NCBI GenBank assembly: GCA_019637795.1 | Contig: JAHBUY010000002.1 | Span: 969,606-1,033,605, forward strand | Origin: a bacterium | GTDB taxonomy: Bacteria; Desulfobacterota; Binatia; HRBIN30; CADEER01 | Direction of reading: 5' to 3' | Length of the DNA: 64,000 nt | Shown: piece by piece, positions 6,168 to 59,046 of the stretch | Layout: every line of letters starts with the position of its first letter | How positions within the stretch are numbered: the stretch's first letter is position 1 | The notes under the pieces: model-generated | What the model saw: the letters and a program-made list of their open reading frames with translations, nothing else | Told to the model about the DNA's origin: nothing | Databases searched by the model: none | Position numbers and translations under genes: made by a program

Positions 6168-6848
6168 TCAGCGGCGGCGCAGGATGAGCCCGACGACGAC
6201 GGCGATGATGCGCACGGTGTCGCCCCACGGCCGATAGTGGCTGATCCGCTCGGCGGCCGGCGGATAGTAGACGTCGACCGGCACCGAGACGATCTCCACC
6301 CCGGCGCGCGCGGCCCGGATCAGCACCTCGGTCTCGAAGGCGAACCGCCCGGCGGTGGCGCCGAGCCGCAGGGTGTCGGCCAGCGGGTAGACGCGAAAGC
6401 CGGACTGCGTGTCCGGCAGCGCCTGGCCGCAGGCGATCTCGACCCAGCGGTTGGCGAAGCGGTTGCCGAAGAGCTTGATCGGCGTCACCTCCTGGTCGCC
6501 GATGCGGCGGGCGCCGACGATCAACGCCCGCGGCGCCGCCGCCGACGCCGCCAGCAGGGCCGGAATCTCGCGCCCCAGGTGCTGGCCGTCGCCGTCCATG
6601 GTCAGCGCGTGGGTGACCCCCTCGCCCGCCAGGCGCGCGAAGCCGGCGCGCAACGCCTCGCCCTTGCCGCGGTTCACGGGCTGGCAGAGCACGGCCGCCC
6701 CGGCGGCCTCGGCCCGCGCCGCCGTGTCGTCGCGCGACCCGTCGTCGACCACCAGCACCCGATCGACGTGGCGCCGCGCGCCGCCGACCACGTCGGCGAT
6801 CGTCGCCGCGCAGTCGTAGGCCGGAATCAGCACCGCGCAGCGTCGCAT
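6168..6848 (-). CDS. family 2 glycosyltransferase (polyprenyl-phosphate sugar transferase-like)
   Basis: GT2 signature (VLIPAYDCAATIADVV...VLVVDDGSRDDT...MDGDGQH...QSGFRVYP). The ATG at 6846-6848 was verified in the sequence. Confidence 0.8.
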   Translation of the reverse strand: MRRCAVLIPAYDCAATIADVVGGARRHVDRVLVVDDGSRDDTAARAEAAGAAVLCQPVNRGKGEALRAGFARLAGEGVTHALTMDGDGQHLGREIPALLAASAAAPRALIVGARRIGDQEVTPIKLFGNRFANRWVEIACGQALPDTQSGFRVYPLADTLRLGATAGRFAFETEVLIRAARAGVEIVSVPVDVYYPPAAERISHYRPWGDTVRIIAVVVGLILRRR

Positions 6849-6996: not shown

Positions 6997-7977
6997 ATGA
7001 CCGCCCCCTCCGCCCCCGTCGCCGCGCGCCTGCGCGCGGCGCTGCGCTTCGACGGCATCTGGTGGCGGAAGCTCGCCTGGCTGGGCTGCGTCTACGGCCC
7101 CGAATGGTGGAAGCAGGGCTCGCCGCCGCTGATCGCGGCGCTCATCTACGCCGGCGTCGGCCGCAACCGCCGCGGCGCCGTCACAAACCTGCAGCGCGTT
7201 CTCGGCGACCCCGATCCGCGGCGGGCGCGCCAGATGGCGCTGCGCATGTACGCCGAGTTCGCCCGCTGCATGACCGAGACGCTGGAGCACTTCGGACCCC
7301 GCCCGCAACCGGTGCGGATCGACGAGCCGACCCGCGACGTCGTCGGCGAGGCCCTGGCCGAGGGCCGCGGCCTGGTGCTGGTGACCGGCCACGTCGGCAA
7401 CTGGGACGTCGCCGCCCGCACCCTCGAGCAGTACGACCGCCCGTTCAACCTGGTGATGGCGCACGAGCGCAACGCCACCACCAGCGCCTACGCGCGCGCC
7501 ATCCGCGAGCGCGCCGGCATGCGGGTGATCTACTCCGACACCTCGGTGTTCTCGTCGCTCAACATGATCCGCGCCCTGCGCGACAACGAGATCGTCGCCA
7601 TCCAGCTCGACCGCACCCTCGGCGTCGGCACCACCCGCATGGTCGAGTTCTTCGGCGCCCCGGCGCCGTTCCCGACCGGGCCGTTCGTTCTCGCCCGCCT
7701 CGCCGGCGCGCCGCTGCTGCCGGTCTTCTTCCCGCGCCTCGGCACCCGCCACTACGCCATCCGCCTCGGCACCCGCCTGACCCTGCCGCGCGACGCCGGC
7801 GACGCGCCGGCGCTGGCGCGCGCCATGCGCGCCGTCGCCGCCGAGCTCGAGGACGTCATCCGCGAGTTCCCGCACCAGTGGTTCCAGTTCGCGCCCTTCT
7901 GGCCGGAGGACGCCGCCCCGAGCGCGCGCCAGCGACCGGCCGACCGCGACGCGCGAGTGCGCGGCCGGCGCGACTAG
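6997..7977 (+). CDS. lipid A biosynthesis (Kdo2-lipid IVA) lauroyl/myristoyl-type acyltransferase family protein (LpxL/HtrB-like)
   Basis: Lip_A_acyltrans features (WWRKLAWLGCVYGPEWW...LVTGHVGNWD...). It is divergent from the GT2 gene. Confidence 0.7.
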   Translation: MTAPSAPVAARLRAALRFDGIWWRKLAWLGCVYGPEWWKQGSPPLIAALIYAGVGRNRRGAVTNLQRVLGDPDPRRARQMALRMYAEFARCMTETLEHFGPRPQPVRIDEPTRDVVGEALAEGRGLVLVTGHVGNWDVAARTLEQYDRPFNLVMAHERNATTSAYARAIRERAGMRVIYSDTSVFSSLNMIRALRDNEIVAIQLDRTLGVGTTRMVEFFGAPAPFPTGPFVLARLAGAPLLPVFFPRLGTRHYAIRLGTRLTLPRDAGDAPALARAMRAVAAELEDVIREFPHQWFQFAPFWPEDAAPSARQRPADRDARVRGRRD

Positions 7978-8014: not shown

Positions 8015-8743
8015 CTAGGCCGCCAGCTCGGCGGCGATCTGCGCCCGCACCGTCTCGCGCAGGCGGTCGCGGTCCTCGTACGTCAGGCCGGCGGTGGCGA
8101 TCGGCGGCAGGATCACCAGCTCGGCCGAACCGGGGAGAATCGAGAGATACTGCCCCTTGGGCATGATGCGGGTCGTCCCCTTGCAGACCACGGGGACGAT
8201 GGGGACGCCGAGTTGGATGGCGGCGACGAAGGCGCCCTTGCGGAACGGCAGCAGCTCGCCGTCGGCGCTGCGCGTCCCTTCCGGGAAGATCACCAGCGAG
8301 CCGCCGTCGAGCGTCACCTTCTGCAGCCGCTCGATGGAGGCCAGGGGATCGTCGCGATCGATGGGAATCATCCCCATGGTGCGGAGCACGGCGCCGAGGA
8401 TCGGCTCGGCGAACATCTCGCGCTTGGCGGCGAACCGGGTCACCCCTGGCAGGAGGCCGAGCAGGGCGGCGATGTCGAAGTGGCTCTGGTGGTTGGGTGC
8501 GAAGATGTACGGCCCGGGGCCGAGCTGTTCGCGCCCGCGCACCCGGATGCGCACGCCGCACACCCGCATGAGGTTGCGCGCCTGCAGCTTGGCGAAGCGC
8601 CACGCCAGCGGCCGGCTGATCTGGTACAGGCCGATGGCCACCAGTCCGGACGAGAACAGCATGGCGCGGAAGAGCACGCGGTTGAGGGCGACGCGCAACC
8701 GCGTCGGCTCGGCGGCGCTGACGGCAACGGCATCGGCGGGCAT
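8015..8743 (-). CDS. plsC: 1-acyl-sn-glycerol-3-phosphate acyltransferase (PlsC family)
   Basis: HxxxxD motif (NHQSHFDI) and FPEGTRS motif. The Met (MPADAVAVS) at 8743 was verified. The 30 residues annotated upstream of this Met mirror the neighbouring gene because of a perfect palindrome and are not considered coding. Confidence 0.8.
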   Translation of the reverse strand: MPADAVAVSAAEPTRLRVALNRVLFRAMLFSSGLVAIGLYQISRPLAWRFAKLQARNLMRVCGVRIRVRGREQLGPGPYIFAPNHQSHFDIAALLGLLPGVTRFAAKREMFAEPILGAVLRTMGMIPIDRDDPLASIERLQKVTLDGGSLVIFPEGTRSADGELLPFRKGAFVAAIQLGVPIVPVVCKGTTRIMPKGQYLSILPGSAELVILPPIATAGLTYEDRDRLRETVRAQIAAELAA

Positions 8744-8746
8744 GCG

Positions 8747-8822: not shown

Positions 8823-8825
8823 GGC

Positions 8826-10178
8826 GTGCGCATCCTCCTCGTATCGCCGACGCACTACAACGCCGACGGCACGTTGCATAAGACGACCCGCTACTGGACC
8901 AGCGGCCTGACGCTGGCGACGCTCAAGGCGCTCACCCCGCCGGGACACGACGTGCGCATGGTCGACGAGCTGTTCCACGACGTCGACCTCGATTTCGACG
9001 GCGACGTCGTCGGCATCACCGCCATGGGACCGCAGATCCGCCGCGCCTACGAGCTCGCCGACCACTTCCGCGGCCGCGGCCGCAAGGTGGTGCTCGGCGG
9101 CACCTGGGTGACGCTCACCGCCGAGGCGTCGCTGCGCCACGCCGACGCCGTGGTCGCCGGCGAGGCCGAATCCGTCTGGCCGCAGGTCCTCGAGGACCTC
9201 GCCGCCGGCCGCAGCCGCGGCATCTACCGCGCCGCCCAGTGGCACGACCTGCGCGGTCTGCCGCGCGTCGATTACACCAGCCTGCCGCTGCTCAAGTACG
9301 ACGCCTTCAAGCGCAGTTGGCTCTACCGCATGTACTTCCACTGGCCGATCGTCTTCTCGCGCGGCTGTCCGCACCCCTGCGAGTACTGCGCCGTGCAGAC
9401 GTTCTACGAGCGCGGCTTCCGCACCCGCCCGGTGGACGAGGTGATCGCCGACCTGGAGGCGATCAAGGCGCTCGGCGCCAACCGCATCCTGTTCCTCGAC
9501 GACAACCCGATCGGCAATCCGACCGCGGCGAAGGAGCTGTTCCGCGCCATGGTTCCGCTGAAGCTGAAGTGGGCCAGCCAGTGCACGATCAACATCGCCC
9601 GCGATCCCGAGCTGCTCGACCTCGCGGCGCGCAGCGGCTGCGTCAGCCTGTCGATCGGCCTCGAGAGCATCAACGAGGACAGCCTCGAGACGATCGGCAA
9701 ACGCTTCAATCAGCCGCGCCGCTTCGACCGCGACCTGGCGGCGATCCGCGCCAAGGGCATCCAGGTGATCGGCCTGCTGATGGTCGGCCTCGACGGCGAC
9801 ACCCTCGATACCTTCCAGCGCTCGCTCGCGTTCCTGATCGACAACAAGGTGTCGTTCCTCAAGCTCTTCACGCCCTGCCCGTACCCCGGCACCAAGTACT
9901 ACGACGACATGCTGGCCGCGGACCGGATCACCATCCAGGACTGGGGCCGCTACGACTACGGCAGCCCGATCATCAAGCCGGCGCAGATGACCGCCGAGGA
10001 GATGATGAGCGGCTTCAAGACCGTCTACGAAGGCTTCTACTCGTCGCGCGCCATCGCCAAGCGCCTCTTCCCCCCGCCCGCCGGCAGCTATCTCGAGACC
10101 CTCGCCTACCTGGTCGCCAACCTGAAGGTGAACCGCTACCTGCGCTCGCACGAGAACGCCTGGGCGACGATCTCGTGA
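8826..10178 (+). CDS. B12-binding (class B) radical SAM enzyme
   Basis: N-terminal cobalamin-binding-like domain (LLVSPTHYN...GITAMGPQ), a CxxxCxxC cluster (CPHPCEYC) and a radical SAM core. A GTG start at 8826 was chosen because the upstream part of the 694-aa ORF is a mirror image of plsC created by the palindrome. Confidence 0.7.
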   Translation: MRILLVSPTHYNADGTLHKTTRYWTSGLTLATLKALTPPGHDVRMVDELFHDVDLDFDGDVVGITAMGPQIRRAYELADHFRGRGRKVVLGGTWVTLTAEASLRHADAVVAGEAESVWPQVLEDLAAGRSRGIYRAAQWHDLRGLPRVDYTSLPLLKYDAFKRSWLYRMYFHWPIVFSRGCPHPCEYCAVQTFYERGFRTRPVDEVIADLEAIKALGANRILFLDDNPIGNPTAAKELFRAMVPLKLKWASQCTINIARDPELLDLAARSGCVSLSIGLESINEDSLETIGKRFNQPRRFDRDLAAIRAKGIQVIGLLMVGLDGDTLDTFQRSLAFLIDNKVSFLKLFTPCPYPGTKYYDDMLAADRITIQDWGRYDYGSPIIKPAQMTAEEMMSGFKTVYEGFYSSRAIAKRLFPPPAGSYLETLAYLVANLKVNRYLRSHENAWATIS

Positions 10179-10406: not shown

Positions 10407-11726
10407 TCAGAGCTCGCGTAACGTCCCGCGCACCCGGAAGAGCCCGCCGTCGGCGGTGGCGCCGAAACGTCCGCGCGCCGTCGCGTCGTCGAAGCGTCGG
10501 TGGCGCGCCGCCAGCTCGGCGGCGAGCCCGGCGTCGCCGCCGAGCAGGTCGGCGGTGCCGGACATCAGGCGCACGAAGGCGGTGCGCGCCTCGAGCGGTC
10601 CCTCGGGGTTGAGCAGCTTGCGCGCCGTCCAGAAGTACGAGTCGGGATCGGTGTGGTGGTCGTAGAAGAAGTAGAGGAACTGGCGGTAGCGCTCGAAGGC
10701 GGCGCGGTAGCGCCGGTCGTAGTCGGCGAGGGCGTCGGCCGGCGACACGTTCCCGGCCAGCAGGCGCTCGACGGCGCGCGCCGCCAGGTAGCCAGCCATC
10801 GACGCCAGGTGCACGCCCGTGGAGAACACCGGATCGATGAAGCAGGCGGCGTCGCCGGCGAGCAGGTAGCCGGGGCCGTGGAAGGCGCGGCTGTCGTAGG
10901 AGTAATCGCGGATCACCCGCACCGGCGCGACGCGCCGGGCGGCGCGCGTCCGCGCCGCCACCGGCGCGCAGGCGGCGACCAGGCGCTCGTAGAGCGGCGT
11001 CGCGTCGCCGCCCGCCTCGCCGGCGAAACGGGTGGCGTCGACCACCGCGCCGACGCTGGTGGTGCCGTCGTGCAGCGGGATGAACCAGAACCAGCCATCG
11101 GCGAAGGCGGCGGAGAGGATGTTGCCGGCGGTGTCGCCGGCCAGGGGCTCGGCGCCGGTGAAGTAGGAGAAGACCGCCAGGTTCTTGAAGAAGGGATCGA
11201 AGCGACGCTGCCCGTCGCGCCGCCCGAGCAGCGCCTGCTGGCCGCTGGCGTCGATCACCCACGGCGCCCGCGCCTCGACCGCCGCGCCGCGCTCGTCGCG
11301 GGCGGCGACCCGGTTGCACGCGCCGTCGTAGGTCACCGTCTCGACCCGATGCGCCTCGCGGACGTCGACTCCGAGCGCCGCCGCGTGGCGTAGCAGGAGG
11401 TGGTCGAACTCCGCCCGCACGACGTGGAAGGCGTGCGGCCGGCCGCCGGGATCGTCGCGGAAGTAGAAGCTCCACGGTTCGGCGCGCGCCCCCCACACGA
11501 AGGTGCCGCCCGGTTTGCGCACGAACCCGGCCGCCTCGATCGCCGGCAGCACCCCCAGCGCCTCCAGCACCGGCATGGTCGCCGACAGCAGCGACTCGCC
11601 GATGTGGTAGCGCGGAAAGCGCTCGCGCTCGAACAGCAGCACCCGCGCCCCCGCCTGGGCGAGAAACCCGGCCGCGACGCTGCCCGCCGGGCCGCCGCCG
11701 ATGACGATGGCGTCAGCGTCGAGCAT
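10407..11726 (-). CDS. flavin-dependent halogenase (tryptophan-halogenase family)
   Basis: GxGxxG FAD fold (IVIGGGPAGSVAAGFLA) plus the diagnostic WxWxIP motif (GWFWFIPL). The Met (MLDADAIV) at 11726 was verified. The 52 codons upstream are Arg/Gly-rich junk. Confidence 0.8.
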   Translation of the reverse strand: MLDADAIVIGGGPAGSVAAGFLAQAGARVLLFERERFPRYHIGESLLSATMPVLEALGVLPAIEAAGFVRKPGGTFVWGARAEPWSFYFRDDPGGRPHAFHVVRAEFDHLLLRHAAALGVDVREAHRVETVTYDGACNRVAARDERGAAVEARAPWVIDASGQQALLGRRDGQRRFDPFFKNLAVFSYFTGAEPLAGDTAGNILSAAFADGWFWFIPLHDGTTSVGAVVDATRFAGEAGGDATPLYERLVAACAPVAARTRAARRVAPVRVIRDYSYDSRAFHGPGYLLAGDAACFIDPVFSTGVHLASMAGYLAARAVERLLAGNVSPADALADYDRRYRAAFERYRQFLYFFYDHHTDPDSYFWTARKLLNPEGPLEARTAFVRLMSGTADLLGGDAGLAAELAARHRRFDDATARGRFGATADGGLFRVRGTLREL

Positions 11727-13431: not shown

Positions 13432-14862
13432 CTATGCCGCGCGGCGCAGCTTGGCGCGCATGTAGACCGCGGCCGAGCTGGCCATGCGGCCGATGAAGCG
13501 CGGCTCGCTCGCCATCAGGCGGGCCATGCCCCAGAGCACGTCCGGGCGCGAGTAGAAGGCGCGGTAGCAGCGGGTGAAGGCCGCTTCCAACTCGGCCTCG
13601 CTGAGGCCGCGGGGGATGAACACGAACTGCATCGCGTTCATGCGCTGCCAGTCCTCGCTGAAGTCGCCGTGCTGGTGGATGGTCGGGTAGGCGGGGGTGC
13701 CCGGATAGGGCGTGAACTTGGTGATCTGGCAGAAGTCGAGCTCGGCGACGCGCAGGAAGGCTTCGGTCTCGCGCAGGCTGTCGCTGGTCTCGGTGGGGTG
13801 GCCGAGCATGAGGTAGCCCTTGGTGCGGATGCCCGCCTGGCGGGTCAGGCGCAGCGTCTCGCGCATGCGCGGGATGCGCACCTCGCGTTTCACGGTGTCG
13901 AGCACGCGCTGCGAGCCGGATTCGATGCCGTAGGCGATCTGCCAGCAACCGGCGCGCCGCATCAGTTGCAGGGTCGGCAGGTCGAGCAGGTTGGGATGGC
14001 TGTTGCAGCTCCAGGTGAGGTCGAGCTGGGCGTCGATCAGCGCCTGGCAGAGATCGACGACGCGCTGTTTGCGCACCGTGAACAGGTCGTCGAGGAAGAG
14101 GATGTGGCGGGCGCCGCGCTCGGCGAGCTCGCGGCACAGCGCCACGACGCGCGCGACGCCGTGCAGCCGGCCCTTGCGGCCGGAGGTCGAGCGATCGCAG
14201 AAGACGCAGGTGAACGGGCAGCCGCGCGAGGTGATGAGGGTGGCCACCGGCGTCCGCGGGTAGCCGAACAGCGTCGGCTGGAAGCGGTGGGGGAAGTCCG
14301 GCAGCAGGTCCCAGGCGGGCGTCGGCAGCGCGTCGAGATCGTCGATGTACGGGGCGCGCGGGTTGGCAACGACCATTGCGCCGCGGCGGAAGGCGACCCC
14401 CGGCAGGTCGTCGACCGCCGCGCCCTGTTCGAGCCGCTCGAGCAGGGCGAACAGCGCCACCTCGCCCTCGCCGGCGATGCCGTAGTCGAAGCTCGGGAAG
14501 GCGGTCAGCGTCCGCTCGGGCACGGCGCTGACGTGGGCGCCGCCGACGATGGTGACGACGGCGGGCCGCGCCCGCTGCACGCGCTCGGCGATGCGCGCCG
14601 CGTTGGTGACCGAGATCGTCGTCGCCGACAGTCCGAGATAGTCGGGGCGCAGCGCCTCGATGCGGCGGGCGACCTCCTCGACCGGCGTCCCCTGTCCCTT
14701 GGCGTCGATCAGGTGCACGCGATAGCCGCGCTGGCGCGCCACCGCCGCGAGCATCAGCATCCCCATGCCGGGGATCGTCTCCTCGCTCTGGCGCAGGCGG
14801 TCGCGGCGGCGGTCCCAGAAGAGATACGGCGGTTCGCAGAGGACCAGCGTTCGCCCAGCCAT
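13432..14862 (-). CDS. B12-binding (class B) radical SAM enzyme
   Basis: Cobalamin-binding-like N-terminal domain, a CPFTCVFC (CxxxCxxC) cluster and a radical SAM core (LITSRGCPFTCVFCD). 476 aa. Confidence 0.8.
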   Translation of the reverse strand: MAGRTLVLCEPPYLFWDRRRDRLRQSEETIPGMGMLMLAAVARQRGYRVHLIDAKGQGTPVEEVARRIEALRPDYLGLSATTISVTNAARIAERVQRARPAVVTIVGGAHVSAVPERTLTAFPSFDYGIAGEGEVALFALLERLEQGAAVDDLPGVAFRRGAMVVANPRAPYIDDLDALPTPAWDLLPDFPHRFQPTLFGYPRTPVATLITSRGCPFTCVFCDRSTSGRKGRLHGVARVVALCRELAERGARHILFLDDLFTVRKQRVVDLCQALIDAQLDLTWSCNSHPNLLDLPTLQLMRRAGCWQIAYGIESGSQRVLDTVKREVRIPRMRETLRLTRQAGIRTKGYLMLGHPTETSDSLRETEAFLRVAELDFCQITKFTPYPGTPAYPTIHQHGDFSEDWQRMNAMQFVFIPRGLSEAELEAAFTRCYRAFYSRPDVLWGMARLMASEPRFIGRMASSAAVYMRAKLRRAA

Positions 14863-14940: not shown

Positions 14941-15495
14941 TCACCACACGAAGGGAATCAGACGCTTCACCTGGCGGCAGTACGCGGCGTACGCGGCGCC
15001 GAGTTGCGCGTGCAGGCGCCGCTCCTCCTGCGCGGCGCGCACCGCCAGCGCGGCGAACAGCGCCAGCCAGGTCAGCGCCAGCGGCGGCCGCGCCGCGACG
15101 ATCGCCGGCGCCGCGGCGGCCATCAGGTAGGCGAGGTAGAGCGGATTGCGCACCAGGCCGAAGGGGCCGTCGCGGCGCAGCCCTGACGGCGCCTCGTCGG
15201 GCAGCGGCCGGTGCCGCAGCGGCCCGATCTGCAGCCGGGCGCGCCACCAGAAGATCTGCGCCGCGGCGTAGAGCGCGATGCCGAGGCCGCCGCGCAGGCG
15301 CGGCACCTGCGGCATGACGCTCACCGCGGCGCAGGCGAGGGTGACGTGGACGGCGACCAGCAGCGGCGCGGCGCGCACCCAGAGGCGCTCGCGCGCCGAG
15401 TAGTGGGGCAGCGCCGCGGTCATCGCCTCGGCGCGGAAGGCGAAGAAGGGGATCCAGCCGACGCCGAAGATGGCCCCGAGCGCGATCGGGATCAT
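14941..15495 (-). CDS. isoprenylcysteine carboxyl methyltransferase (ICMT)/phospholipid methyltransferase family membrane protein
   Basis: C-terminal ICMT/PEMT signature (GPFGLVRNPLYLAYL...EERRLHAQLGAAYAAYCRQVKRLIP). The Met (MIPIALG) at 15495 was verified. Its ATGA overlaps the upstream gene. Confidence 0.7.
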   Translation of the reverse strand: MIPIALGAIFGVGWIPFFAFRAEAMTAALPHYSARERLWVRAAPLLVAVHVTLACAAVSVMPQVPRLRGGLGIALYAAAQIFWWRARLQIGPLRHRPLPDEAPSGLRRDGPFGLVRNPLYLAYLMAAAAPAIVAARPPLALTWLALFAALAVRAAQEERRLHAQLGAAYAAYCRQVKRLIPFVW

Positions 15496-16490
15496 GGGCT
15501 CGTCGCCCGGCGCGCCGTCGGCAGGCGCGCCGGCGAGACGCCGAGCAGCGACAGTGCCAGCAGTCCGATCAGGACGAACAGCGTCTCGTGCAGACGCAGG
15601 ATGACGCCGACCACGAAGCCGAGATCGGCGCGCCCGGTGGTGGCGCCGACCGCGAGCACCTGTGTCGCCTCCAGCGCGCCCAGGGCCGCCGGCGTCGGCA
15701 CCGCGCGCGCCATGCCGCCACCGAGCAGCACCATCAGCAGCACCGGCAGCTCGAGGTCGAGGCCGAAGGCGCCGAGCAGCGCCCGGTACTGCAGCACCAC
15801 GACCAGCTCGATCAGCGCCGTGAGCGCGATGCCGGCGACGAAGGTGGCGCGGTGGGCGGCGAAGAACCCCAGCAGGTGGTCCTCGACGCGGCGCAACCCG
15901 TCCAGCCAACCCGCGTGGCGCCCGACCCATCGGCGGGCGCGCGACCCGTACAACGGCGCCAGTGGCCGGCCGCCGCGCCCCAGCCGCACGACCAACGCCG
16001 CCAGCAGGACCAGCAGCGCGGCGACCCCGGCGCCGACGAGCCAGGTGGCGCGCGCCGACGTGCCGGCCATGGCGGCCGAGAACACGGCCAGGTAGGCGGC
16101 CACCGCGAGCAGATTGCCGATGACCTCGAGCAGCCGGTCGATCGCCACCCCCGCGCTCGCCGACGCGAGCGGGGTCGCGCCGGCGCGCGCCAGCACGGCG
16201 CGCAGCGGATCGCCGCCCACCCGCGCCAACGGCAGCAGCGAGGCGACGCCGTCGCCGGCCAGGCGCGCCGCGGCGATCCGCCCCACGCCGACCGGCGCCC
16301 CAACCGCCGCCGCCATCACCCGCCAGCGCCCGGCCTGCAGGCCGAGCACCACCGCCGACCACGCCGCATACTCGACCAGGCCGCGCGGCGAGGCGTGGCG
16401 CAACGCCGCCAGCGCGCCGCCGAGGCCGAACCACCATGCCAGCGCCGCCAGCAGCGCGGCGCCGAGCAGCAGCGGGACGCCGCCCTTCAC
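15492..16490 (-). CDS. UPF0104 / lysylphosphatidylglycerol-synthase-TM-like (flippase-like) membrane protein
   Basis: Multi-TM protein (KGGVPLLLGAALLAALAWWF...). Inferred GTG start at 16490 overlapping the deacetylase stop (GTGA). Further upstream the ORF overlaps the deacetylase in another frame. Confidence 0.6.
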   Translation of the reverse strand: MKGGVPLLLGAALLAALAWWFGLGGALAALRHASPRGLVEYAAWSAVVLGLQAGRWRVMAAAVGAPVGVGRIAAARLAGDGVASLLPLARVGGDPLRAVLARAGATPLASASAGVAIDRLLEVIGNLLAVAAYLAVFSAAMAGTSARATWLVGAGVAALLVLLAALVVRLGRGGRPLAPLYGSRARRWVGRHAGWLDGLRRVEDHLLGFFAAHRATFVAGIALTALIELVVVLQYRALLGAFGLDLELPVLLMVLLGGGMARAVPTPAALGALEATQVLAVGATTGRADLGFVVGVILRLHETLFVLIGLLALSLLGVSPARLPTARRATSP

Positions 16491-17302
16491 TGCCACGGCG
16501 CCGCCTCCCCTGGCGGCGCGGCGACCTGCGGAAAGAGGTCGCGGATGGCGCCGAAGGCGCGCGCGCGCAACAGGCGCTCGAGGCGCGGCGCCAGGCGCGC
16601 GCGGCCGGCGCGCAGCAGCCAGCGCGCCGCGCCCGGCGCGCTCGGCGAATCGGGATCGAGCTCCCACGGATGGAGGTAGAAGACGCCGCTGCCGACGTCG
16701 CGCTCGAAGCCGCGCAGGCCGTGCGCCAGCAGGCGCGGCGGCAGCAGTCGCAGCCCCCAGCCGCTGGCCGCCGGCAGGTGCCAGAAGCGGCAGAGCCGCA
16801 GCACCGCCACCGGCACCTCCCAGAGACCGTTGTGGTGGCGGTACGGCTGCCGCGGCGAGACCAGCTCGAGCCCCGGCGGCCGGTCGTTCGGCAGGACGCT
16901 CGAGTCGTAGGAGTAGCCCGCCGCGGCGAGTTGCTCGATCGGCCAGCGCACGCCGGCGCGGATGGCGAAGTAGGGCGCGCGGTAGCCGCGCACCGGTCGG
17001 CCGCTGACGTCCTCGAGCAGCCGCCGGGCGCGCTCGACGTCGGCGCGGAACTCGCGCCAGAGTTGGTTCGCCAGGTGATGGTGGGCGTGGCCGTGACTGG
17101 CGAGCTCGTGGCCGGCGTCGGCGATGCGCCGCACCAGCGCCGGATGCCGCTCGGCGACGGCGCCGAGCACGAAGAAGGTCGCCCGCGCCCCGGCGGCCGC
17201 GAACTGCTCGAGGAGCGCGTCGGTGTTACGCTCGACCCGGCCGCCGCCGGCGGCGGCCGCGAGGCCGCCGTCGTGAAACCAGTCCTCGACGTCGACCGAC
17301 AT
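16487..17302 (-). CDS. polysaccharide deacetylase (NodB-homology/CE4) family protein
   Basis: Met (MSVDVEDWFH) at 17302 was verified. NodB-type motifs (DVEDWF, HGHAHH). Confidence 0.75.
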   Translation of the reverse strand: MSVDVEDWFHDGGLAAAAGGGRVERNTDALLEQFAAAGARATFFVLGAVAERHPALVRRIADAGHELASHGHAHHHLANQLWREFRADVERARRLLEDVSGRPVRGYRAPYFAIRAGVRWPIEQLAAAGYSYDSSVLPNDRPPGLELVSPRQPYRHHNGLWEVPVAVLRLCRFWHLPAASGWGLRLLPPRLLAHGLRGFERDVGSGVFYLHPWELDPDSPSAPGAARWLLRAGRARLAPRLERLLRARAFGAIRDLFPQVAAPPGEAAPWQ

Positions 17303-17408
17303 GGCGTGGCGCGGCGCTGTCACGGTGCGCGGAACGTAGCCCGCCGGCGGCGCCAGTTCCACGACGGCGCGGTCCCGGCGGGCGCCGCCGCGGCGCGGGC
17401 GCGGGACG

Positions 17409-18602
17409 TTGACGCTTCGCCGCCCGCGGGCTAGCGGAGGCTCGGTGGAGATCTTCACGCTCGATGCCGACGACGTCCAGGCGCGCCTGGCCGCCGCAAC
17501 GCGGGTCGCTGACGCAGCCCGCGACGACGTGCTGGCGCGCGCCCGCGCCGCCCAGCCGCTCGAGGTCGACGACCTCGCGGTGCTGTGGACGGCGCCCTTC
17601 GACGCGGAGACGCTGTACGCCGCCGCGTGCGCGGCGCGCGCCCTTCGCCCGCGTTCGCTCGAGACCTTCGCGCCCCTCTACCTCACCAACACCTGCGACG
17701 CCGAATGCCGGATGTGCGGCATGCGCCGCGACAACGCGGCCCTGCGCCGCGAGACGGTCGACCTGCCGGCGGTCGAGGCCCAGCTCGAGATCCTGCGCCG
17801 GCGCGGCATGCACGGAGTCGCGCTGCTGACCGGCGAGTATCGCGCCGGCGGGCGCGACTGGGCGCTGGCGCACGTCAACCAGGCGCTGCGGCGCGCGACG
17901 ACGCTCGGCTTCCGCCACGTCCTGATCAACATCGGCGCCATCGACGCACACGAGTACGACGCGCTGCTCGCCGGCCTCGCCCGCCACGCCGGCGACGACG
18001 GCGGCCCGAAGCTGACGATGTGCACCTTCCAGGAGACCTACTCGCGGCCGCTGTACCGCGCCTTCATGGGCGACAGCGCGGACAACCCGCGCGCCGATTT
18101 CGAGCGCCGATTGGCGAACTTCGATCGCGCCCGCGCCGCCGGCATGCGGGTCGCCAACCCCGGCATCCTGGTCGGTCTCAATCCCGACCTCGGCTTCGAG
18201 CTGCTGGCGCTCGCGCTGCACACCCGGCACCTGCAGCGCCACGGGATGGAGGTCTACCTGTCGGTGCCGCGCCTGCGGCAGATCGCCGGCCGCGCCAACC
18301 AGCGCGGCGCCGGCGACGCGGCCTTCGTCCGCCTCGTCTCGATCCTGTCGCTCGGCCTGCCGGAGGCGAAGATCGTCCTCACGACGCGCGAGTCGGCGGA
18401 GATCCAGCGCCGCCTGGTGCCGCTGGTCGGCGTGCTCTCCGCCGGCTCGGCCGCGGTCGCGCCCTACACCAGCTCGGGCGCCCGTTTCCCGCTCGAGGCG
18501 AGCCAGTTCGAGGTCGTCGACCAGCGCCCGTTCGAAGCGATCCTCGGCGAGCACCTCCGTCCGGGCGTGCGCATCGAGAACTTCGACCCGCCGGCCGCGT
18601 AG
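17409..18602 (+). CDS. ThiH/HydG-family (tyrosine-lyase type) radical SAM enzyme
   Basis: FAPLYLTNTCDAECRMCGM matches the ThiH/HydG F-x-PLYLSN-C-xxx-C-xx-CGF motif. The downstream ALLTGEY matches ThiH LLVTGEH. The antisense 442-aa ORF is Arg/Gly-rich junk. Confidence 0.7.
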   Translation: MTLRRPRASGGSVEIFTLDADDVQARLAAATRVADAARDDVLARARAAQPLEVDDLAVLWTAPFDAETLYAAACAARALRPRSLETFAPLYLTNTCDAECRMCGMRRDNAALRRETVDLPAVEAQLEILRRRGMHGVALLTGEYRAGGRDWALAHVNQALRRATTLGFRHVLINIGAIDAHEYDALLAGLARHAGDDGGPKLTMCTFQETYSRPLYRAFMGDSADNPRADFERRLANFDRARAAGMRVANPGILVGLNPDLGFELLALALHTRHLQRHGMEVYLSVPRLRQIAGRANQRGAGDAAFVRLVSILSLGLPEAKIVLTTRESAEIQRRLVPLVGVLSAGSAAVAPYTSSGARFPLEASQFEVVDQRPFEAILGEHLRPGVRIENFDPPAA

Positions 18603-18605
18603 CGG

Positions 18606-19805
18606 TCACGGTCGATCGAGGAGCAGGGCGGTCATCGCGCCGCCGCGGGCGCTGCCGCACACCAGGGCGCGGCGGAGATCGGCGGCGGCGGCCTGGCGCG
18701 GCGCCAGGCGCAGCGCGGTGGGGATCGGCGTCTCCAGGTGGCAGAGCGGCGGGACCGCTTGCTCGCGCAGCGCCAGGCAGGCGGCGGCCGCGGTCATGGC
18801 GCCGGCGGCGCCGAAGTCGCCGATCGCGCCCTTGATCGAGGTCACGGTGGCGGCGCGGATCGCCGGCACGGCGGCGAAGAGGTCGAGCTCGCAGGCGTCG
18901 AGACGGCGCGACGAATTGGCGGCGCCGCACACCAGGTCGACCGGCGCCCCGGCGCACAGCGCCGTCAGCGGCGCGATGGCGGCCGGCGCCTGCAGCGGCC
19001 AGTCGTAGCGCGGCGCTTCGCTCGCGCAGGTCGCGGTCGCGACGATGCGGGCATAGATCGGCGCGCCGCGCCGGCGCGCCCGCTCGAGCGGCTCGAGCGC
19101 CAGCATCGCCGCCCCTTCGCCGACCACGACGCCGCTGCGCGCCGCGTCGTAGGGGCTGGCCCATTGGCGACCGCCGCGCTGGCCGGCGAGGGCGCGGGCC
19201 CGGTGCAGGACGCGCACCAGCACGGCCGCGATCTCGTCGGCGCCGCCGGCGAGCACGAGATCGGCGCGGCCGCGGCGCACCGCGTCGACGCCGAGCGCGA
19301 TGGCGGCCTCGCCGGACACCTCCGCCTGCGAGACGGTGAAATTGACGCCGCTGAAGCCGAATTCCATCGCCGCGTAGCTGGCCGGGGCGTTCAGCACCAG
19401 GTTGGGAAACGCCATCGGGCTCACCCCGGCGGGGCCCTTCTGGAACAGGCGGTCGAGTTGCTGCACCGACTCGGTCGCCGCGCCGAGAGCGGAGCCGAAG
19501 ACGATGCCGGCGCGGGCGCGATCGAGCGTCGCCAGGGCGCGCGCGTCGTCGAGCGCCATGCGGCAGGCGGCGACGGTCATGCGCGACAACGCGTCCATGC
19601 GCCGGTAGTGCGTCGAGGCGACGAGCTCGCGGGGGGAGAAGTCGCGCACCGCGGCGGCGCTCGGCGGCAGGCCGTCCGCCAGCGCCAGACCGTCGATCGG
19701 CGCGATGCCGGAGCGGCCGGCGCGCAGCGCGTTCCAGAATTGGCGCGGCCCGACGCCGATCGGACTGACGACGCCGATGCCGGTGACGGCGACGTCGTCG
19801 CTCAT
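18606..19805 (-). CDS. ketosynthase-like protein lacking the active-site Cys (KS-beta / chain-length-factor-like)
   Basis: Thiolase fold is present, but the TACSS position reads FTVSQAEVSG (Gln replaces Cys). The Met (MSDDVAV) at 19805 overlaps the stop of the upstream KS (ATGA). Confidence 0.75.
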   Translation of the reverse strand: MSDDVAVTGIGVVSPIGVGPRQFWNALRAGRSGIAPIDGLALADGLPPSAAAVRDFSPRELVASTHYRRMDALSRMTVAACRMALDDARALATLDRARAGIVFGSALGAATESVQQLDRLFQKGPAGVSPMAFPNLVLNAPASYAAMEFGFSGVNFTVSQAEVSGEAAIALGVDAVRRGRADLVLAGGADEIAAVLVRVLHRARALAGQRGGRQWASPYDAARSGVVVGEGAAMLALEPLERARRRGAPIYARIVATATCASEAPRYDWPLQAPAAIAPLTALCAGAPVDLVCGAANSSRRLDACELDLFAAVPAIRAATVTSIKGAIGDFGAAGAMTAAAACLALREQAVPPLCHLETPIPTALRLAPRQAAAADLRRALVCGSARGGAMTALLLDRP

Positions 19806-21016
19806 GGCGTCGCCTCGGGGGCGGCGCCGAGGACCACGCTCGTATTGTTGCCGCCGAAGCCGTACGAGTTCGAGAGCACGGTGCGCAGGGCCGCCGGGCG
19901 GCTGCGCGCCGGCACGTAGTCGAGATCGCACTCGGGATCCGGCTCGCGCAGGCTGACGGTCGGCGGAAGGAAACCGCCGCGCAGCGCCAGCAGCGCCGCC
20001 AGCGCCTCGATGGCGCCGGCGGCGGCGAGGCAGTGTCCGACCTGCGACTTGGTCGACGACACCGGCACCGCATAGGCGCGCGGTCCGAGCACCGCCTTGA
20101 TGGCGCGCGTCTCGACGGCGTCGTTCAGGGGCGTCCCGGTGCCGTGCGCGTTGACGTAGTCGATGCGGTCGGCGTCGACGCCGGCATCGGCGAGGGCGCG
20201 CCGCATCGCCAGGATGGCGCCGGCGCCGTCGGGGCGCGGCTGGGTGAGATGGTGCGCGTCGGCGCTGACCCCGTAGCCGAGGAGCTCGCCGAGGATCGGC
20301 GCGCCGCGGCGCGCGGCGGCCTCCCACGCCTCGAGCACGAACAGGGCCGCCCCTTCGCCCAGGGTCAGGCCGGCGCGGGCGCGATCGAACGGCCGGCAGG
20401 GGACGCGATCGAGGGCCTGCAGGACGTTGAACCCCGAGTAGGTCATGCGGCACAGCGACTCGGCGCCGCCGCACAGCACCGCGGTCGCCTGGCCGCCGCG
20501 GATCCAGTCGGCGGCGATGCCGAGGGCGTTGGCGCCGGAGGAGCACGCGGTGGACACCGTGACGCGCGGGCCGCGGCTGCCGATCAACGCCGCGACGGCG
20601 TCGGTGGCGACCGCGATCGGCGTCTCGAGCCAATCGCGCAGCGGCGCCCGCGCTCCCGTGCCGGCGCCTTCGATGCGGTAGCTCTCCTCGCCGCCGGCGA
20701 GCCCGCCGGTGGTGGTGCCGAGCACCACGCCGCAGGTCCGGCCGTCGTCGAGCCCGCTGCCCCGCCAGGCCTCCGCGGCGGCGACCACGGCGAGCCGCGC
20801 CGTGTGCGAGAGCCGCCGCGCCGCGCCGCTCGGAATGGCCTCCGGCAGCGGCGGCGGCGGCGCTTCCGCGGCGCAGGCCGTGCGGTAGCCCGCGGCGGCG
20901 AAGCGGGTCAGCGCGCCGATGCCGCACCGGCCCTCGCGCAGGCCGGACGCGAAGGCCTCGACCCCGACGCCGAGGGCGTTGATGCTGCCGATGCCGGTGA
21001 TCGCGACCCGGGTCAT
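19802..21016 (-). CDS. beta-ketoacyl synthase (KS-alpha / FabF-like, active)
   Basis: Active-site Cys (VSTACSS), His (NAHGTGT) and His (KSQVGHCL) motifs are present. Confidence 0.85.
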   Translation of the reverse strand: MTRVAITGIGSINALGVGVEAFASGLREGRCGIGALTRFAAAGYRTACAAEAPPPPLPEAIPSGAARRLSHTARLAVVAAAEAWRGSGLDDGRTCGVVLGTTTGGLAGGEESYRIEGAGTGARAPLRDWLETPIAVATDAVAALIGSRGPRVTVSTACSSGANALGIAADWIRGGQATAVLCGGAESLCRMTYSGFNVLQALDRVPCRPFDRARAGLTLGEGAALFVLEAWEAAARRGAPILGELLGYGVSADAHHLTQPRPDGAGAILAMRRALADAGVDADRIDYVNAHGTGTPLNDAVETRAIKAVLGPRAYAVPVSSTKSQVGHCLAAAGAIEALAALLALRGGFLPPTVSLREPDPECDLDYVPARSRPAALRTVLSNSYGFGGNNTSVVLGAAPEATP

Positions 21017-21169: not shown

Positions 21170-21943
21170 TCACGCCATGGTCAGGCCGCCGTCGACGGCG
21201 AGGGTGGCGCCGGTGACGTAGGCGGCGGCCGGCGAGGCGAGGAAGCGGATCGCCTGCGCCACCTCGTCCGGCTGGCCGACGCGGCCGAGCGGGACGTGGC
21301 CGAGGTGGCGCTGGCGCAGCGGCGCCGGCATGTCGGCGATCAGACGGGTGTCGACCAGACCGGGGCAGACGGCGTTGACGGTGATGGCATAGCGCCCGAC
21401 CTCGCGCGCCAGCGACTTGGTGAAGCTGAGCAGCCCGCCCTTGGCGGCGGCGTAGTTGGCCGCGCCCTCCTGGCCGAGCAGCGCCGCCGGCGAGACGACG
21501 TTGATGATCCGCCCCCAGCGCCGCTTGATCATCGGCCGCAACGCCTGCCGGGCGCACAGGAAGGCGCCGCGCAGGTTGACGGCCAGCACCTCGTCCCACT
21601 GGGCGGGGCTGAGCAGCATGGCGAGGCCGTCGCGCGTCACCGCGGCGTTGTTGACCAGGATGTCGACGCCGTCCCAGCGTTTGCGCAGGTGGGCGAACAT
21701 CGCCTCGACCTGCGCCGCGTCGGCGACGTCCGCCTGCACCACCTCGACCTCGCCGCCGTGCGCGCGCAGCCCCTCCGCGGTCTCCTCCGCCTCCAGCGCC
21801 GAGCGCGCGTAGTTGACGGCCACCGCGGCGCCCGCCGCCGCCAGCACCTCGGCGGTGGCGCGGCCGATGCCGCGCGAGGCGCCGGTGACCAGGGCGCGCC
21901 GGCCGTCGAGGCGCCAGGGATCGTTCAGCGCAGCAGGCGCCAC
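21170..21943 (-). CDS. 3-oxoacyl-ACP reductase (FabG-like SDR)
   Basis: Rossmann [12 protein letters not shown], and the YAAAK catalytic motif (NYAAAKGG). A GTG start at 21943 was inferred, giving a 19-nt overlap with the upstream rSAM gene. The rest of the 723-aa ORF overlaps that rSAM out of frame. Confidence 0.75.
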
Positions 21944-23298
21944 AACTGGCCCTTGATGCGGCGGTCGCGCAGGCGGCGCAGCACGGCGATGTTGGTCTTG
22001 ATGCCGAGCCCCGGCACGATCCAGTTCGGCTGCTGGCGGGCATAGGCGTCGATGCGATCGATGAGCGCGTCGCCGAGCCCCGGCGCGACGTAGAAGCGGG
22101 GCTCGATCAACGGGTCGTCGGCGTCGATGAGGCCGTCGCGCAGCGCGATCTCGACCATGCCGGTGCCGGGCAGGATGCGGATGCCGGTCATCGCGATCAC
22201 CGCCGTCGGCCGCAGCTCCTCCATCAGGGCGATGGTCTGGTCGATGCTCTCCGCGGTCTCGCCGGGGCCGCCGAAGATCAGGCTGTGGCAGAACTTGAGC
22301 CCGTGCGCCGCGAACAGCGCCGAGGTGCGGCGCAGATCGTCGAGGGCGAACTCCTTGCGCAGGTTGGCGATCAGGGTCGGCGCTCCGGAATCGGTGCCGA
22401 GCTCGATGGCGCGGCAGCCGGAGCGGGCCATCAGGTCGCACAGCTCGGCGTCGACGAACTTGGGGTTCAGGTAGGCGGACCACTCGATGTCGAGGTCGCG
22501 GGCGATGAGCTCGCGGCAGATCGCCTTGGCGTGGCGCAGCGGCAGATTGAAGATGTTGTCGACGAAGAACCAGTGGCGCGCCCCGGTCTCGCGCCGCGCC
22601 GCCTCGATCTCGTCCACCACCGCCGCCGGGCTGCGCACGCGCACGGTCGCGCCTTCGATCAGCGGATAGCTGCAGAACACGCACTCGAAGACGCAGCCGC
22701 GCTTGGTCTGGATGTTCAGCGCGCCCCCGCGCTCGTAGTAGCGGTGCCAGTCGAAGGCGGCGCGGCGCGGCGCGCCGGCGTCGTCGAGACGGCGGATGCG
22801 ACCGGTCGGGGTGACGCAGACGCCGCGGCCCGCGGGCTCGCAACGCATCGCCGCCGTCGAGCGCAGCGACGCGCCGGCGGCCAGGCGCTCGAGCACCCAG
22901 GGGAAGGCGAGCTCGCCCTCGCCGACCACGCCGACCTCGGCGTCGAGCCAGCGCATCAGCGTGCCCGGCATCACCGTGAAGCCGGCGCCGCCGAGCACGA
23001 TCGGCGCCGGCGTCGCGGCGCGCACGGTCTCGATCAGGGCGCGGTAGTCGGGCACGTAGGAGGTGGTCTGCGGATAGGCCGACGAATCGAGGTTGCGCAG
23101 CGAGATGCCGACCGCGTCGGGCGCGAAGTCGCGCACCTGCGCCGTCAGCGCCGCCCGCGGATCGCCGGCGAAGCAGCAGTCGAACGTGGCCACCGTGTGG
23201 CCGTGCTGCTCGGCGACCGTCGCCATGTAGGCGGCGCCGAGCGGATACACCGGATCGGGGAGGTGTTCCGTGTTGGCGGAGATGAGCAGAACGCGCAT
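21925..23298 (-). CDS. B12-binding (class B) radical SAM enzyme
   Basis: The ATG ([12 protein letters not shown]) at 23298 was verified. Cobalamin-binding-like N-terminal domain and a CVFECVFC cluster. Confidence 0.8.
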
Positions 23299-59024: not shown

Positions 59025-59046
59025 CCCCGCGGCCCGCCGCTGCCAG

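Follow-up and report, generated by a model that had tools for sequence, protein, structure and literature searches.

The gene described here lies on a 64-kb stretch of DNA, referred to below as the window, and is the sole plus-strand gene within a minus-strand block that extends from ~10.4 to 36.7 kb (Table 1). The plus-strand open reading frame proposed in the original prediction (17409..18602) is real, as judged from its strong coding signature (GC3 0.95, GC2 0.51), but was started 36 nt too early, since the TTG at 17409 forms part of the −35 hexamer in a conserved promoter. The most likely start is GTG 17445, which gives a length of 385 aa in agreement with NCBI protein MBX3025153.1; this entry is 100% identical to the product and is annotated as 'hypothetical protein'. 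The CX3CX2C and ...ALLTGEY... motifs that had been read from this frame were confirmed, as ...ETFAPLYLTNTCDAECRMCGMRR... and ...GVALLTGEYR... are both found in the translation.

Table 1. Features of the NosL-like gene and its neighbours in the 64-kb window, ordered by position.
Feature	Coordinates	Strand	Basis or detail
GT2 glycosyltransferase, polyprenyl-phosphate sugar transferase type	6168..6848	-	
LpxL / lysophospholipid acyltransferase family protein	6997..7977	+	
PlsC-type acyltransferase	8015..8743	-	start probably ATG 8743
Third B12-binding radical SAM protein, 450 aa from GTG 8826	8826..10178	+	L003 homologue also 450 aa
Flavin-dependent halogenase, CmlS-like	10407..11726	-	GxGxxG and WxWxIP motifs
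B12-binding radical SAM protein; best NCBIfam match HpnJ, far under its cut-off	13432..14862	-	Pfam, NCBIfam
ICMT/PEMT-like membrane methyltransferase	14941..15495	-	
LPG_synthase_TM / flippase-like membrane protein	15492..16496	-	Pfam, NCBIfam
Polysaccharide deacetylase + DUF3473, divergent from the radical SAM gene	16487..17302	-	Pfam, NCBIfam
Putative sigma70-type promoter of the radical SAM gene	17409..17437	+	−35 TTGACG 17409-17414, 17-nt spacer, −10 TAGCGG 17432-17437
NosL-like radical SAM aromatic amino acid lyase, 385 aa, MBX3025153.1	17445..18602	+	profile, PDB, structure and tree comparisons
CX3CX2C motif (Cys84, Cys88, Cys91) within PLYLTNTCDAECRMCGM; binding site of the radical SAM [4Fe-4S] cluster	17694..17717	+	invariant in 16 family members
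TTRE motif with Arg315, counterpart of NosL Arg323 / ThiH Arg300; Gln321 at +6	18381..18407	+	alignments
Beta8 motif SAGSAAVAPY (Ser332...Tyr341)	18438..18470	+	Arg315 spacing as in NosL; without the one-residue insertion of ThiH/HydG
3-nt spacer CGG separating the two convergent stops	18603..18605	.	read from sequence; not conserved in relatives
KS-beta / chain-length-factor (CLF)-like ketosynthase; Glu replaces active-site Cys (VSQAEVSG vs VSTACSSG in KS-alpha)	18606..19805	-	Pfam, NCBIfam
KS-alpha (FabF-like ketosynthase)	19802..21016	-	Pfam, NCBIfam
FabG-like ketoreductase (KR; SDR)	21170..21943	-	
B12-binding radical SAM protein, TIGR04072 'lipid biosynthesis B12-binding/radical SAM protein'	21925..23298	-	NCBIfam, 381.8 bits vs cut-off 360

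Transcription signals and gene neighbourhood

The putative promoter was recognized by its conservation: exactly one TTGAC, followed 17–18 nt on by TAnnnn, stands just before the start codon in 15 of the 16 intergenic regions of loci arranged as in the window (architecture 1), and TTGAC occurs at a background frequency of 0.44 per kb per strand over the window. A consensus promoter scan made no call at this site because the −10 element is weak. Since the GTG start lies only 7 nt past the −10, the mRNA is probably leaderless or almost leaderless. A GGAGG upstream of the GTG was considered as a ribosome-binding site and probably is not one; it sits between the conserved −10 and the start codon, so that a leaderless transcript is the likelier explanation. 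Judged from these sequence features, the gene appears to have its own conserved promoter and to be transcribed singly, in the direction of the KS operon's end.

The spacing of 3 nt from the KS-beta stop codon that had been pointed out is exact (TAG 18600-18602, CGG, then TCA 18606-18608, the reverse-complement stop of the KS-beta frame) but incidental. The equivalent junction in relatives ranges from a 4-nt overlap to >800 nt, and no intrinsic-terminator-like sites were seen in 16400-19900; a conserved regulatory junction was thus ruled out. A further sequence element of the window, a 41-nt palindrome at 8740-8829, has no comparable counterpart in the three relatives inspected; L066 has just a 70% complementary repeat, at a tentative position.

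The orphan status of the gene was borne out, as no thiamin, hydrogenase or F420 linkage was found in the window: tblastn with ThiC/E/F/S/G of E. coli gave nothing in 64 kb (best E 0.8), an Rfam scan found neither a TPP riboswitch nor any other family, and HydE, HydF and CofG are absent among the neighbours scanned with Pfam and NCBIfam. The window likewise holds no thiopeptide genes, ligase or carrier of the NosL-type context (NosI, NosJ, NosK, NosN). Of the gene set that marks aryl polyene-type clusters, the window has KS, CLF-like KS, KR and two acyltransferases, beside a GT2 and a halogenase, and lacks ACP, ligase, dehydratase and exporter. The GT2, HpnJ-like B12-radical SAM protein, deacetylase and HpnL-like membrane protein were also compared with the hopanoid HpnI/J/K/L head-group module, to which they bear only a loose resemblance (HpnJ 186 vs cut-off 578, HpnL 31 vs 196); the HpnK model gave no match to the window deacetylase, and the GT2 matches AglJ/PpgS-type enzymes.

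Assignment to the NosL branch

Within the ThiH/HydG/NosL group of radical SAM enzymes, the product falls on the NosL (tryptophan lyase) branch; it is not ThiH, HydG or CofH. Although its score against Pfam PF04055 (radical SAM) is under the gathering threshold (23.5 vs 29.5), the CX3CX2C motif is invariant, its cysteines align with the cluster cysteines of NosL, ThiH and HydG, and the AlphaFold model (pLDDT 84, pTM 0.88) has a full TIM barrel matching radical SAM structures. Membership in the aromatic amino acid lyase group was upheld at three levels. NCBIfam scores are 245 bits for NosL (TIGR04158), 151 for ThiH (TIGR02351) and 87 for HydG (TIGR03955), against curated cut-offs of 400 (equivalog), 380 and 312, respectively; the CofH, CofG, BioB and HydE models gave no match at E ≤ 0.01 and PylB only 35 bits. 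The PDB sequence search returned NosL (4R33/6HTK) over the full length at E 2e-70, HydG at 3e-25 and ThiH at 3e-23. The model superposes on NosL with a TM of 0.88–0.90 (~40–42% identity), on HydG and ThiH with ~0.76, and, far less closely, on HydE, BioB and PylB with 0.60–0.69 at 13–18% identity. HydG, CofH/G, BioB and HydE identities were ruled out by scores, protein length and fold ranking.

As in ThiH and HydG, an N-terminal alpha domain precedes the TIM barrel, the catalytic Arg is present, and the enzyme is expected to abstract hydrogen from the amino group of its substrate. Identity to these two is 24–26% in Foldseek structure alignments and 29–31% over aligned columns of the tree alignment. 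Unlike HydG, whose C-terminal extension of ~90 residues carries an auxiliary cluster, the 385-aa product has no C-terminal domain, and it aligns only to residues 45–381 of the 480-aa HydG chain 4WCX_A.

In the Tyr-bound ThiH structure the tyrosine lyases are marked by an Arg at +6 (R306), a one-residue insertion in beta8 (with Ser321) and E158 at the substrate carboxylate, and the counterpart of ThiH Arg300 / NosL Arg323 binds the substrate amino and carboxyl groups (PMC9046217). All three tyrosine-lyase markers are absent from the product: Gln321 occupies the R306 position, the beta8 bulge insertion is missing, and Asn162 stands at the E158 position, with Leu128 where HydG has a compensating acid. 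All markers that discriminate between the two types thus have the NosL form, and T313, T314, R315, E316 and Q321 are invariant among 16 family members. The same form was found in all 20 NosL-like sequences, SaNosL among them, in a comparison of 96 sequences (93 group representatives and 3 PDB references), where sequences of the ThiH/HydG side have, with few exceptions, the Arg at +6 and the extra residue. The barrel-end segments, which form the active site, are 62% identical to NosL vs 31% elsewhere, and CD(A/S)EC(R/K)MC, LTGEY, NIG, TMC, NPG and V(A/T)PY are common to both proteins. The markers taken from the ThiH structure separate NosL-type enzymes from tyrosine lyases but are no proof that tryptophan, and not another substrate, is used.

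In neighbour-joining trees the NosL-like clade was recovered in 100/100 bootstraps and so was the subfamily of the product; hence the original label 'ThiH/HydG-type' is not supported, although the enzyme does belong to the aromatic amino acid lyase group as a whole. The product represents a separate, uncharacterised subfamily within the NosL-like branch. It misses the NosL equivalog cut-off (a bona fide NosL representative, P0135, reaches 573 bits), and the subfamily was the sister of bona fide NosL in 0/100 bootstraps, so that the two need not make the same compound.

The housekeeping thiamin enzyme ThiH (2-iminoacetate synthase) is the name that JGI gives to many or most of the relatives. 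For the window gene this identity is so improbable that it was ruled out, as the ThiH score lies far under its cut-off, the tyrosine markers are missing, the window has neither thi genes nor a TPP riboswitch, and the gene lies within lipid/polyene clusters in every species-level locus of the subfamily.

Relatives and their loci

The subfamily was found in 62 species-level genomes, all of them MAGs and mostly of Candidatus Binatia. Aryl-polyene or "ladderane-like" lipid genes lie nearby in 62/62 loci, and include KS/CLF, KR, B12-radical SAM, halogenase, acyltransferases and a flippase-like membrane protein. An AMP-ligase is present in 43 of the 62 loci, followed by the flippase-like protein, the most constant neighbour after the ligase (39), a B12-radical SAM gene (36) and KS (21); a HAL/TAL-type ammonia lyase occurs in 9 and an ACP in some. 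In architecture 1 the deacetylase is the conserved divergent partner. Architecture 2, which is frequent, has AMP-ligase, NosL-like gene and flippase-like protein as a tight operon (gaps of 10 and 15 nt in L047), and architecture 3 combines the NosL-like gene with AMP-ligase, methyltransferase and a 4HBT thioesterase. Another NosL-like subclade adjoins a HemN-type radical SAM gene, the class to which NosN belongs.

Relatives such as L003, L047 and L059 have a full aryl polyene-type gene set. Like the aryl polyene (APE), flexirubin and xanthomonadin clusters, subfamily loci contain KS and CLF-like KS, KR, FabA-like dehydratase, ACP, a PaaK/FlxY-like aryl-acid ligase (of PaaK/FlxY/BagE aryl-acid type in L003), LolA-like and MMPL exporters, LpxL-/PlsC-type acyltransferases, glycosyltransferase, halogenase and sometimes TAL. 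Unlike those clusters, they add 2–3 B12-radical SAM genes, the deacetylase, the flippase-like protein and the NosL-like gene; the window copy differs further, as a cluster-type AMP-ligase, ACP, dehydratase, TAL and exporters were not found in its 64 kb. A similar set, made up of two FabF genes, a B12-radical SAM gene whose product reaches the TIGR04072 cut-off and a gene resembling polysaccharide deacetylases, characterises the 'ladderane-like' lipid clusters of bacteria outside the anammox group (Rattray 2009, PMC2649909; TIGR04072). The searched passages of that study mention no NosL/ThiH-type enzyme in these clusters, whereas the window cluster has one; the hosts of the present loci are not anammox bacteria. 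In the portions of the literature available to the search, no link of NosL/ThiH-type enzymes to aryl polyenes, Binatota or ladderane clusters appeared, and nothing on the subfamily.

Proposed function and its alternatives

It is proposed, with a probability of roughly 0.5, that the enzyme is a NosL-type lyase that makes a 3-methylindole-2-carboxylate-like aryl acid for the product of the cluster, the substrate probably being L-tryptophan. In NosL, Trp is cleaved between C-alpha and the carboxyl group to give 3-methyl-2-indolic acid (PMC9046217), which is passed on to NosI (adenylation) and then to the carrier NosJ (PMC5585349). By analogy, the enzyme would take up an aromatic L-amino acid in free form, with L-tryptophan, possibly ring-substituted, as the most probable one, and a 5'-deoxyadenosyl radical would abstract an amino hydrogen. 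The C-alpha to carboxyl bond would then be broken and the carboxyl fragment re-attached to the ring, as in NosL. An aryl-acid AMP-ligase, comparable to NosI, adjoins the gene in most relatives and could adenylate the resulting aryl acid, which would then be loaded on an ACP; the ligase of 43 loci would in this respect parallel the NosL-NosI-NosJ relay. Finally, the acid would be incorporated, whether as the aryl unit that starts the chain or as an acyl group appended to it, into a halogenated polyene or lipid specified by the KS/CLF, KR, B12-radical-SAM, acyltransferase and glycosyltransferase genes. The setting differs from that of NosL/NocL (3-methyl-2-indolic acid synthase), which belongs to thiopeptide clusters of actinomycetes. 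Counting against this reading are the score under the NosL equivalog cut-off, the non-sister position of the subfamily and the catalytic promiscuity of NosL itself (PMC4916742). In addition, the ligase, cluster-type ACP, dehydratase and exporter are missing from the window, and in nine relatives the HAL/TAL could provide an aryl starter as in flexirubin synthesis, which would free the NosL-like enzyme for another role.

A role in precursor supply to the KS/CLF-halogenase machinery had been suggested before, and it is plausible because of the constant association with these lipid genes in 62 species; the identity then given to the precursor is not supported. Aryl polyenes normally bear a 4-hydroxyphenyl head, as known from the aryl-polyene, flexirubin and xanthomonadin pathways, and a ThiH/HydG-type tyrosine lyase of the same enzyme group, cleaving C-alpha from C-beta, could provide p-cresol, a 4-hydroxybenzyl-type unit or dehydroglycine. 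Such an activity is improbable in view of the NosL-state markers, the position in the NosL-like clade and the low ThiH and HydG scores, and p-cresol, not being a carboxylic acid, would need no adjacent AMP-ligase.

A possible, if doubtful, alternative is that the NosL fold serves another substrate or reaction, i.e., an undescribed cleavage or rearrangement of another amino acid or of a pathway intermediate with a free amine (exposed by the divergent deacetylase, or derived from aryl-ACP/TAL). Favouring this are the separate, non-sister position under the NosL cut-off, constant partners that include the deacetylase and the flippase-like protein, and the TAL/HAL that could already give the aryl unit in nine loci; moreover, small changes readily divert the chemistry of NosL (PMC4916742). 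The invariant Arg, by which a free amino acid is bound at its alpha-amino and alpha-carboxyl groups, speaks against it, as do nearly all barrel-end motifs being common to NosL and the recurrent AMP-ligase, which fits a carboxylic acid product.

The NosL reaction, in which a carboxyl group migrates on tryptophan by a radical mechanism, has to our knowledge been described only for thiopeptide antibiotics. If a NosL-type lyase acts in these loci as proposed above, a new aromatic building block can be expected in aryl-polyene-type lipids. Celluxanthenes, which rest on different chemistry, were called the first polyene pigments with indole in the chromophore (2025, PMC12144888). More tentatively, the subfamily may provide aryl-polyene-type lipids with their aromatic head by a third route, in which Trp would be turned into 3-methylindole-2-carboxylate, perhaps halogenated, and then adenylated, ACP-loaded, extended by KS/CLF and remodelled by B12-radical SAM enzymes, giving undescribed indole-capped polyene or lipid pigments in uncultured Binatia; or else the NosL scaffold may perform a new radical rearrangement on an intermediate of the lipid pathway. 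The placement corrects a widespread annotation, under which the relatives are labelled ThiH or "hypothetical", and the natural sequence variation around the NosL active site bears on what steers C-alpha/C-beta vs C-alpha/carboxyl cleavage. A conserved NosL-like subfamily in polyene and "ladderane-like" lipid clusters is also a concrete entry point into the products of those clusters.

The gene and its boundaries

The plus-strand ORF that the original prediction described as an orphan ThiH/HydG-type gene is present, contains both motifs quoted for it and is strongly coding (GC3 0.95, GC2 0.51, in a window sequence of 72% G+C); in a frame-by-frame composition plot it is the sole plus-strand gene within a minus-strand block of ~10.4–36.7 kb. 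The 100% identical NCBI protein of 385 aa (MBX3025153.1, "hypothetical protein KF840_09605 [bacterium]", 1.07-Mb contig) begins at GTG 17445, and not at the TTG proposed initially. Of 16 window-type loci whose divergent intergenic regions were aligned, 15 hold exactly one TTGAC in that region, and 17–18 nt further on comes TAnnnn, just 5′ of the start codon (TTGAC background in the window, 0.44 per kb per strand); because this layout is conserved, the TTG is read as the −35 box of this gene's promoter. The arrangement TTGAC(C/G)-N17/18-TAnnnn is also kept directly before the start codon of the NosL-like gene in loci L001–L025. In several loci the −10 element lies only 6–9 nt from the start codon, which suggests leaderless transcripts; judged from these alignments, the transcript in the window probably has no leader or almost none, and such a layout is also apparent in L006, L009, L011, and L014.

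At the 3′ end, only CGG separates the stop codon TAG (18600–18602) from TCA, where the convergent KS-beta (CLF-like ketosynthase) ORF stops, so the predicted 3-nt gap is exact. Terminator-like hairpins were sought around this junction and none was found. Since the same junction runs from a 4-nt overlap to >800 nt in relatives, any transcript overlap is a local effect of compaction and no conserved device.

Features of the window and of loci L066 and L070
Feature	Position	Strand	Remark
NosL-like ORF	17409–18602	+	
Promoter of NosL-like gene	17409–17444	+	TTGACG (17409–14), 17 nt, TAGCGG (17432–37), 7 nt, GTG
Polysaccharide deacetylase + DUF3473		−	start side, divergent
LPG_synthase_TM/flippase-like protein		−	start side, divergent
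ICMT/PEMT-like methyltransferase		−	start side, divergent
HpnJ-like B12-radical SAM protein		−	start side, divergent
CLF-like KS	18606–19805	−	stop side, convergent; Glu replaces catalytic Cys (VSQAEVSG)
KS		−	stop side, convergent
FabG-like KR		−	stop side, convergent
B12-radical SAM protein		−	stop side, convergent; passes TIGR04072, "lipid biosynthesis B12-binding/radical SAM protein"
CmlS-like flavin halogenase			farther; WxWxIP motif
Third B12-radical SAM gene			farther
PlsC-type + LpxL-type acyltransferases			farther
GT2			farther
PIN-domain toxin + DUF7662 genes	12499–13313	−	
Inverted repeat	8740–8829		41-nt arms, 95% complementary, 8-nt loop
MBOAT gene cluster	57555–62219	−	MBOAT membrane acyltransferase, 80-aa carrier protein, FkbH_N/HAD protein, SDR, MaoC dehydratase
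P0129-subclade gene	L070, 4525–5628		
tblastn matches to NosL-like gene	L066, 10001–11159		fragmented

Placement among the radical SAM lyases

Sequence and fold scores all favour NosL. The NCBIfam scores are 245 bits for NosL (cut-off 400), 151 for ThiH (380), 87 for HydG (312), and 35 for PylB, and the E-values against PDB sequences are 2e-70 for NosL (full length), 3e-23 for ThiH, and 3e-25 for HydG. The AlphaFold model, built with 16 family members as input (pLDDT 84, pTM 0.88), gives TM-scores of 0.88–0.90 with NosL (40% identity), ~0.76 with ThiH and HydG, and 0.60–0.69 with HydE/BioB/PylB; clustering with BioB/HydE is ruled out. The barrel-end (active-site) segments are 62% identical to NosL, as against 31% elsewhere, and hold NosL-specific signatures.

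Features that set tyrosine lyases apart from NosL were named with the Tyr-bound ThiH structure, namely an Arg six residues past the catalytic Arg (ThiH R306), a one-residue insertion at β8, and an acidic residue facing the substrate carboxylate, which is E158 in ThiH and for which a Glu/Asp compensates in HydG (PMC9046217). In residue-by-residue alignments, R315 of the window protein corresponds to NosL R323 and ThiH R300, Q321 at +6 matches NosL Q329, the spacing to the SxGS motif is that of NosL, and N162 and L128 occupy the positions of ThiH E158 and of the HydG compensating acid, respectively. The markers were surveyed in 96 sequences: three PDB references and 93 representatives from a HMMER scan, exhaustive over 1.84 billion cluster representatives, that returned only 849 matches at E <= 1e-3, of which 49 reached E <= 1e-30. 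Each of the 20 NosL-like sequences, among them SaNosL, shows the short spacing, the Asn and one of Gln, Leu or Ile at +6, and ThiH/HydG-side sequences carry, with few exceptions, Arg at +6 and an extra residue. As read from aligned residues, the markers rule out a tyrosine-lyase active site, without proving tryptophan as the substrate. The assignment to the aromatic amino acid lyase group and the orphan status stand; the protein moves from the tyrosine-lyase clade to the NosL clade, and the predicted Cα–Cβ cleavage yielding p-cresol or a 4-hydroxybenzyl unit is not borne out. A housekeeping thiH is very unlikely from markers and context, as judged from the 64-kb window.

In the neighbour-joining tree (92 sequences, 341 columns), the NosL-like clade and the protein's own family were each recovered in 100/100 bootstraps and bona fide NosL (SaNosL and P0135, whose 573 bits clear the TIGR04158 cut-off) in 98/100, whereas the family was sister of bona fide NosL in 0/100. 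The window protein scores below NosL's cut-off and its family is not sister to NosL; bootstraps, markers and barrel-end identity place it in a new subfamily of the NosL-like clade. This clade holds several other uncharacterised subfamilies (TIGR04158 scores 246–354). In the P0129 subclade (354 bits; loci L070 and L071), the NosL-like gene lies directly 3′ of a HemN_C-type radical SAM gene, NosN being of the HemN-type class; its neighbours there also include a methyltransferase, a glycosyltransferase like EryCIII and a gene resembling Orn/Arg decarboxylases. These loci probably encode a different indolic-acid natural product pathway. The representative search also returned P0142 (711 aa), a natural fusion of an N-terminal SPASM/MoaA-like radical SAM domain with a C-terminal NosL-like domain.

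Occurrence and gene neighbourhood

At least 120 clusters at >= 62% identity occur in a large protein collection, named, where at all, "hypothetical", "2-iminoacetate synthase (ThiH)" or, once, "3-methyl-2-indolic acid synthase". A survey of GTDB at one genome per species gave 62 loci, every one in a MAG, labelled mostly Candidatus Binatia or "Deltaproteobacteria bacterium" and in a few cases Spirochaetaceae, Myxococcota, Polyangiaceae or Thermodesulfobacteriota. In the closest species-level relative (L066, a long-read MAG, 78% identity), the fragmented matches suggest a frameshifted gene, through assembly indels or as a pseudogene.

In the window, the NosL-like gene stands between two minus-strand units. 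Type II PKS chain-length factors usually carry Gln where the CLF-like KS has Glu. An AMP-ligase, a cluster-type ACP, a dehydratase and an exporter were sought and none was found in the 64-kb window, so the pathway in the source genome is either split or reduced.

When the cluster proteins were compared by tblastn with all collected loci, three recurrent layouts emerged, the first being the window type. The second is a tight same-strand operon of AMP-ligase, NosL-like gene and flippase-like protein, in that order, surrounded by LpxL, B12-radical SAM, halogenase, KS/CLF, FabA-like dehydratase, ACP, MMPL and LolA, and sometimes by a HAL/TAL-type ammonia lyase. The third is a compact set of FAD oxidoreductase, AMP-ligase, methyltransferase, NosL-like gene and 4HBT thioesterase. 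In L026, L027, L028, L029, L041, L061, L063, and L067, which have this context, the first two lie upstream and the SAM methyltransferase and thioesterase flank the NosL-like gene; L026, L027, and L041 also have 2-oxoacid:ferredoxin oxidoreductase and GltD-like genes next to this set. In these eight loci there are no KS genes within 10 kb. Within the flanks covered, every one of the 62 species-level loci has at least one cluster gene (AMP-ligase 43, flippase-like protein 39, B12-radical SAM 36, KS 21), these counts being lower bounds because many contigs are short. The family's loci combine the gene set of aryl-polyene/flexirubin-type clusters with that of "ladderane-like" FabF/B12-radical-SAM/deacetylase clusters; the latter occur in non-anammox bacteria and have no known product (PMC2649909, PMC9902471). 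In the literature searched, nothing tied aryl polyenes, ladderane-like clusters or Binatota to enzymes of the NosL/ThiH type.

Other features of the window were also noted. The PIN-domain toxin and DUF7662 genes, likely a toxin–antitoxin pair, are an insertion in the lipid cluster, with the halogenase/BamE-like genes on one side and the HpnJ-like gene on the other; relatives such as L001 and L005 lack them at the corresponding site. The inverted repeat is the only one of its kind in the window, where chance predicts 0.01 matches, and covers the start codons of the PlsC-type acyltransferase (ATG 8743) and the divergent B12-radical SAM gene (GTG 8826). Owing to it, the ORFs called mechanically on the two strands are prolonged by N-terminal extensions that mirror each other. 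A comparable repeat was not found in L003 and L025; one in L066, not necessarily at these two genes, is only 70% complementary. The separate MBOAT cluster resembles a glyceryl-ACP-type acylation system and is unrelated to the NosL-like gene.

Proposed chemistry

The protein has the radical SAM motif and the NosL fold, keeps the invariant Arg that binds the substrate, and agrees with NosL at each discriminating position. Its substrate would be a free aromatic amino acid, with tryptophan the likeliest; the enzyme would abstract the amino hydrogen and, along the NosL path, cleave the bond between Cα and the carboxyl group and re-add the carboxyl fragment to the ring, giving a 3-methylindole-2-carboxylate-type acid. 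Such an acid might serve as KS starter or appended acyl group and may be acted upon by the halogenase; a role in precursor supply remains plausible. A carboxylic acid product fits because an AMP-ligase recurs beside the NosL-like gene. The ligase of the relative's locus L003 is of the PaaK/FlxY/BagE aryl-acid type and is paralleled by NosI, an enzyme that adenylates the product of NosL and transfers it to the carrier NosJ (PMC5585349). NosL chemistry is easily diverted (PMC4916742), and TAL/HAL, present in nine relatives, could already supply an aryl starter. The gene is real, and its product represents a subfamily of NosL-like radical SAM lyases that is new and whose lipid/polyene context in uncultured bacteria is unexplained and conserved.
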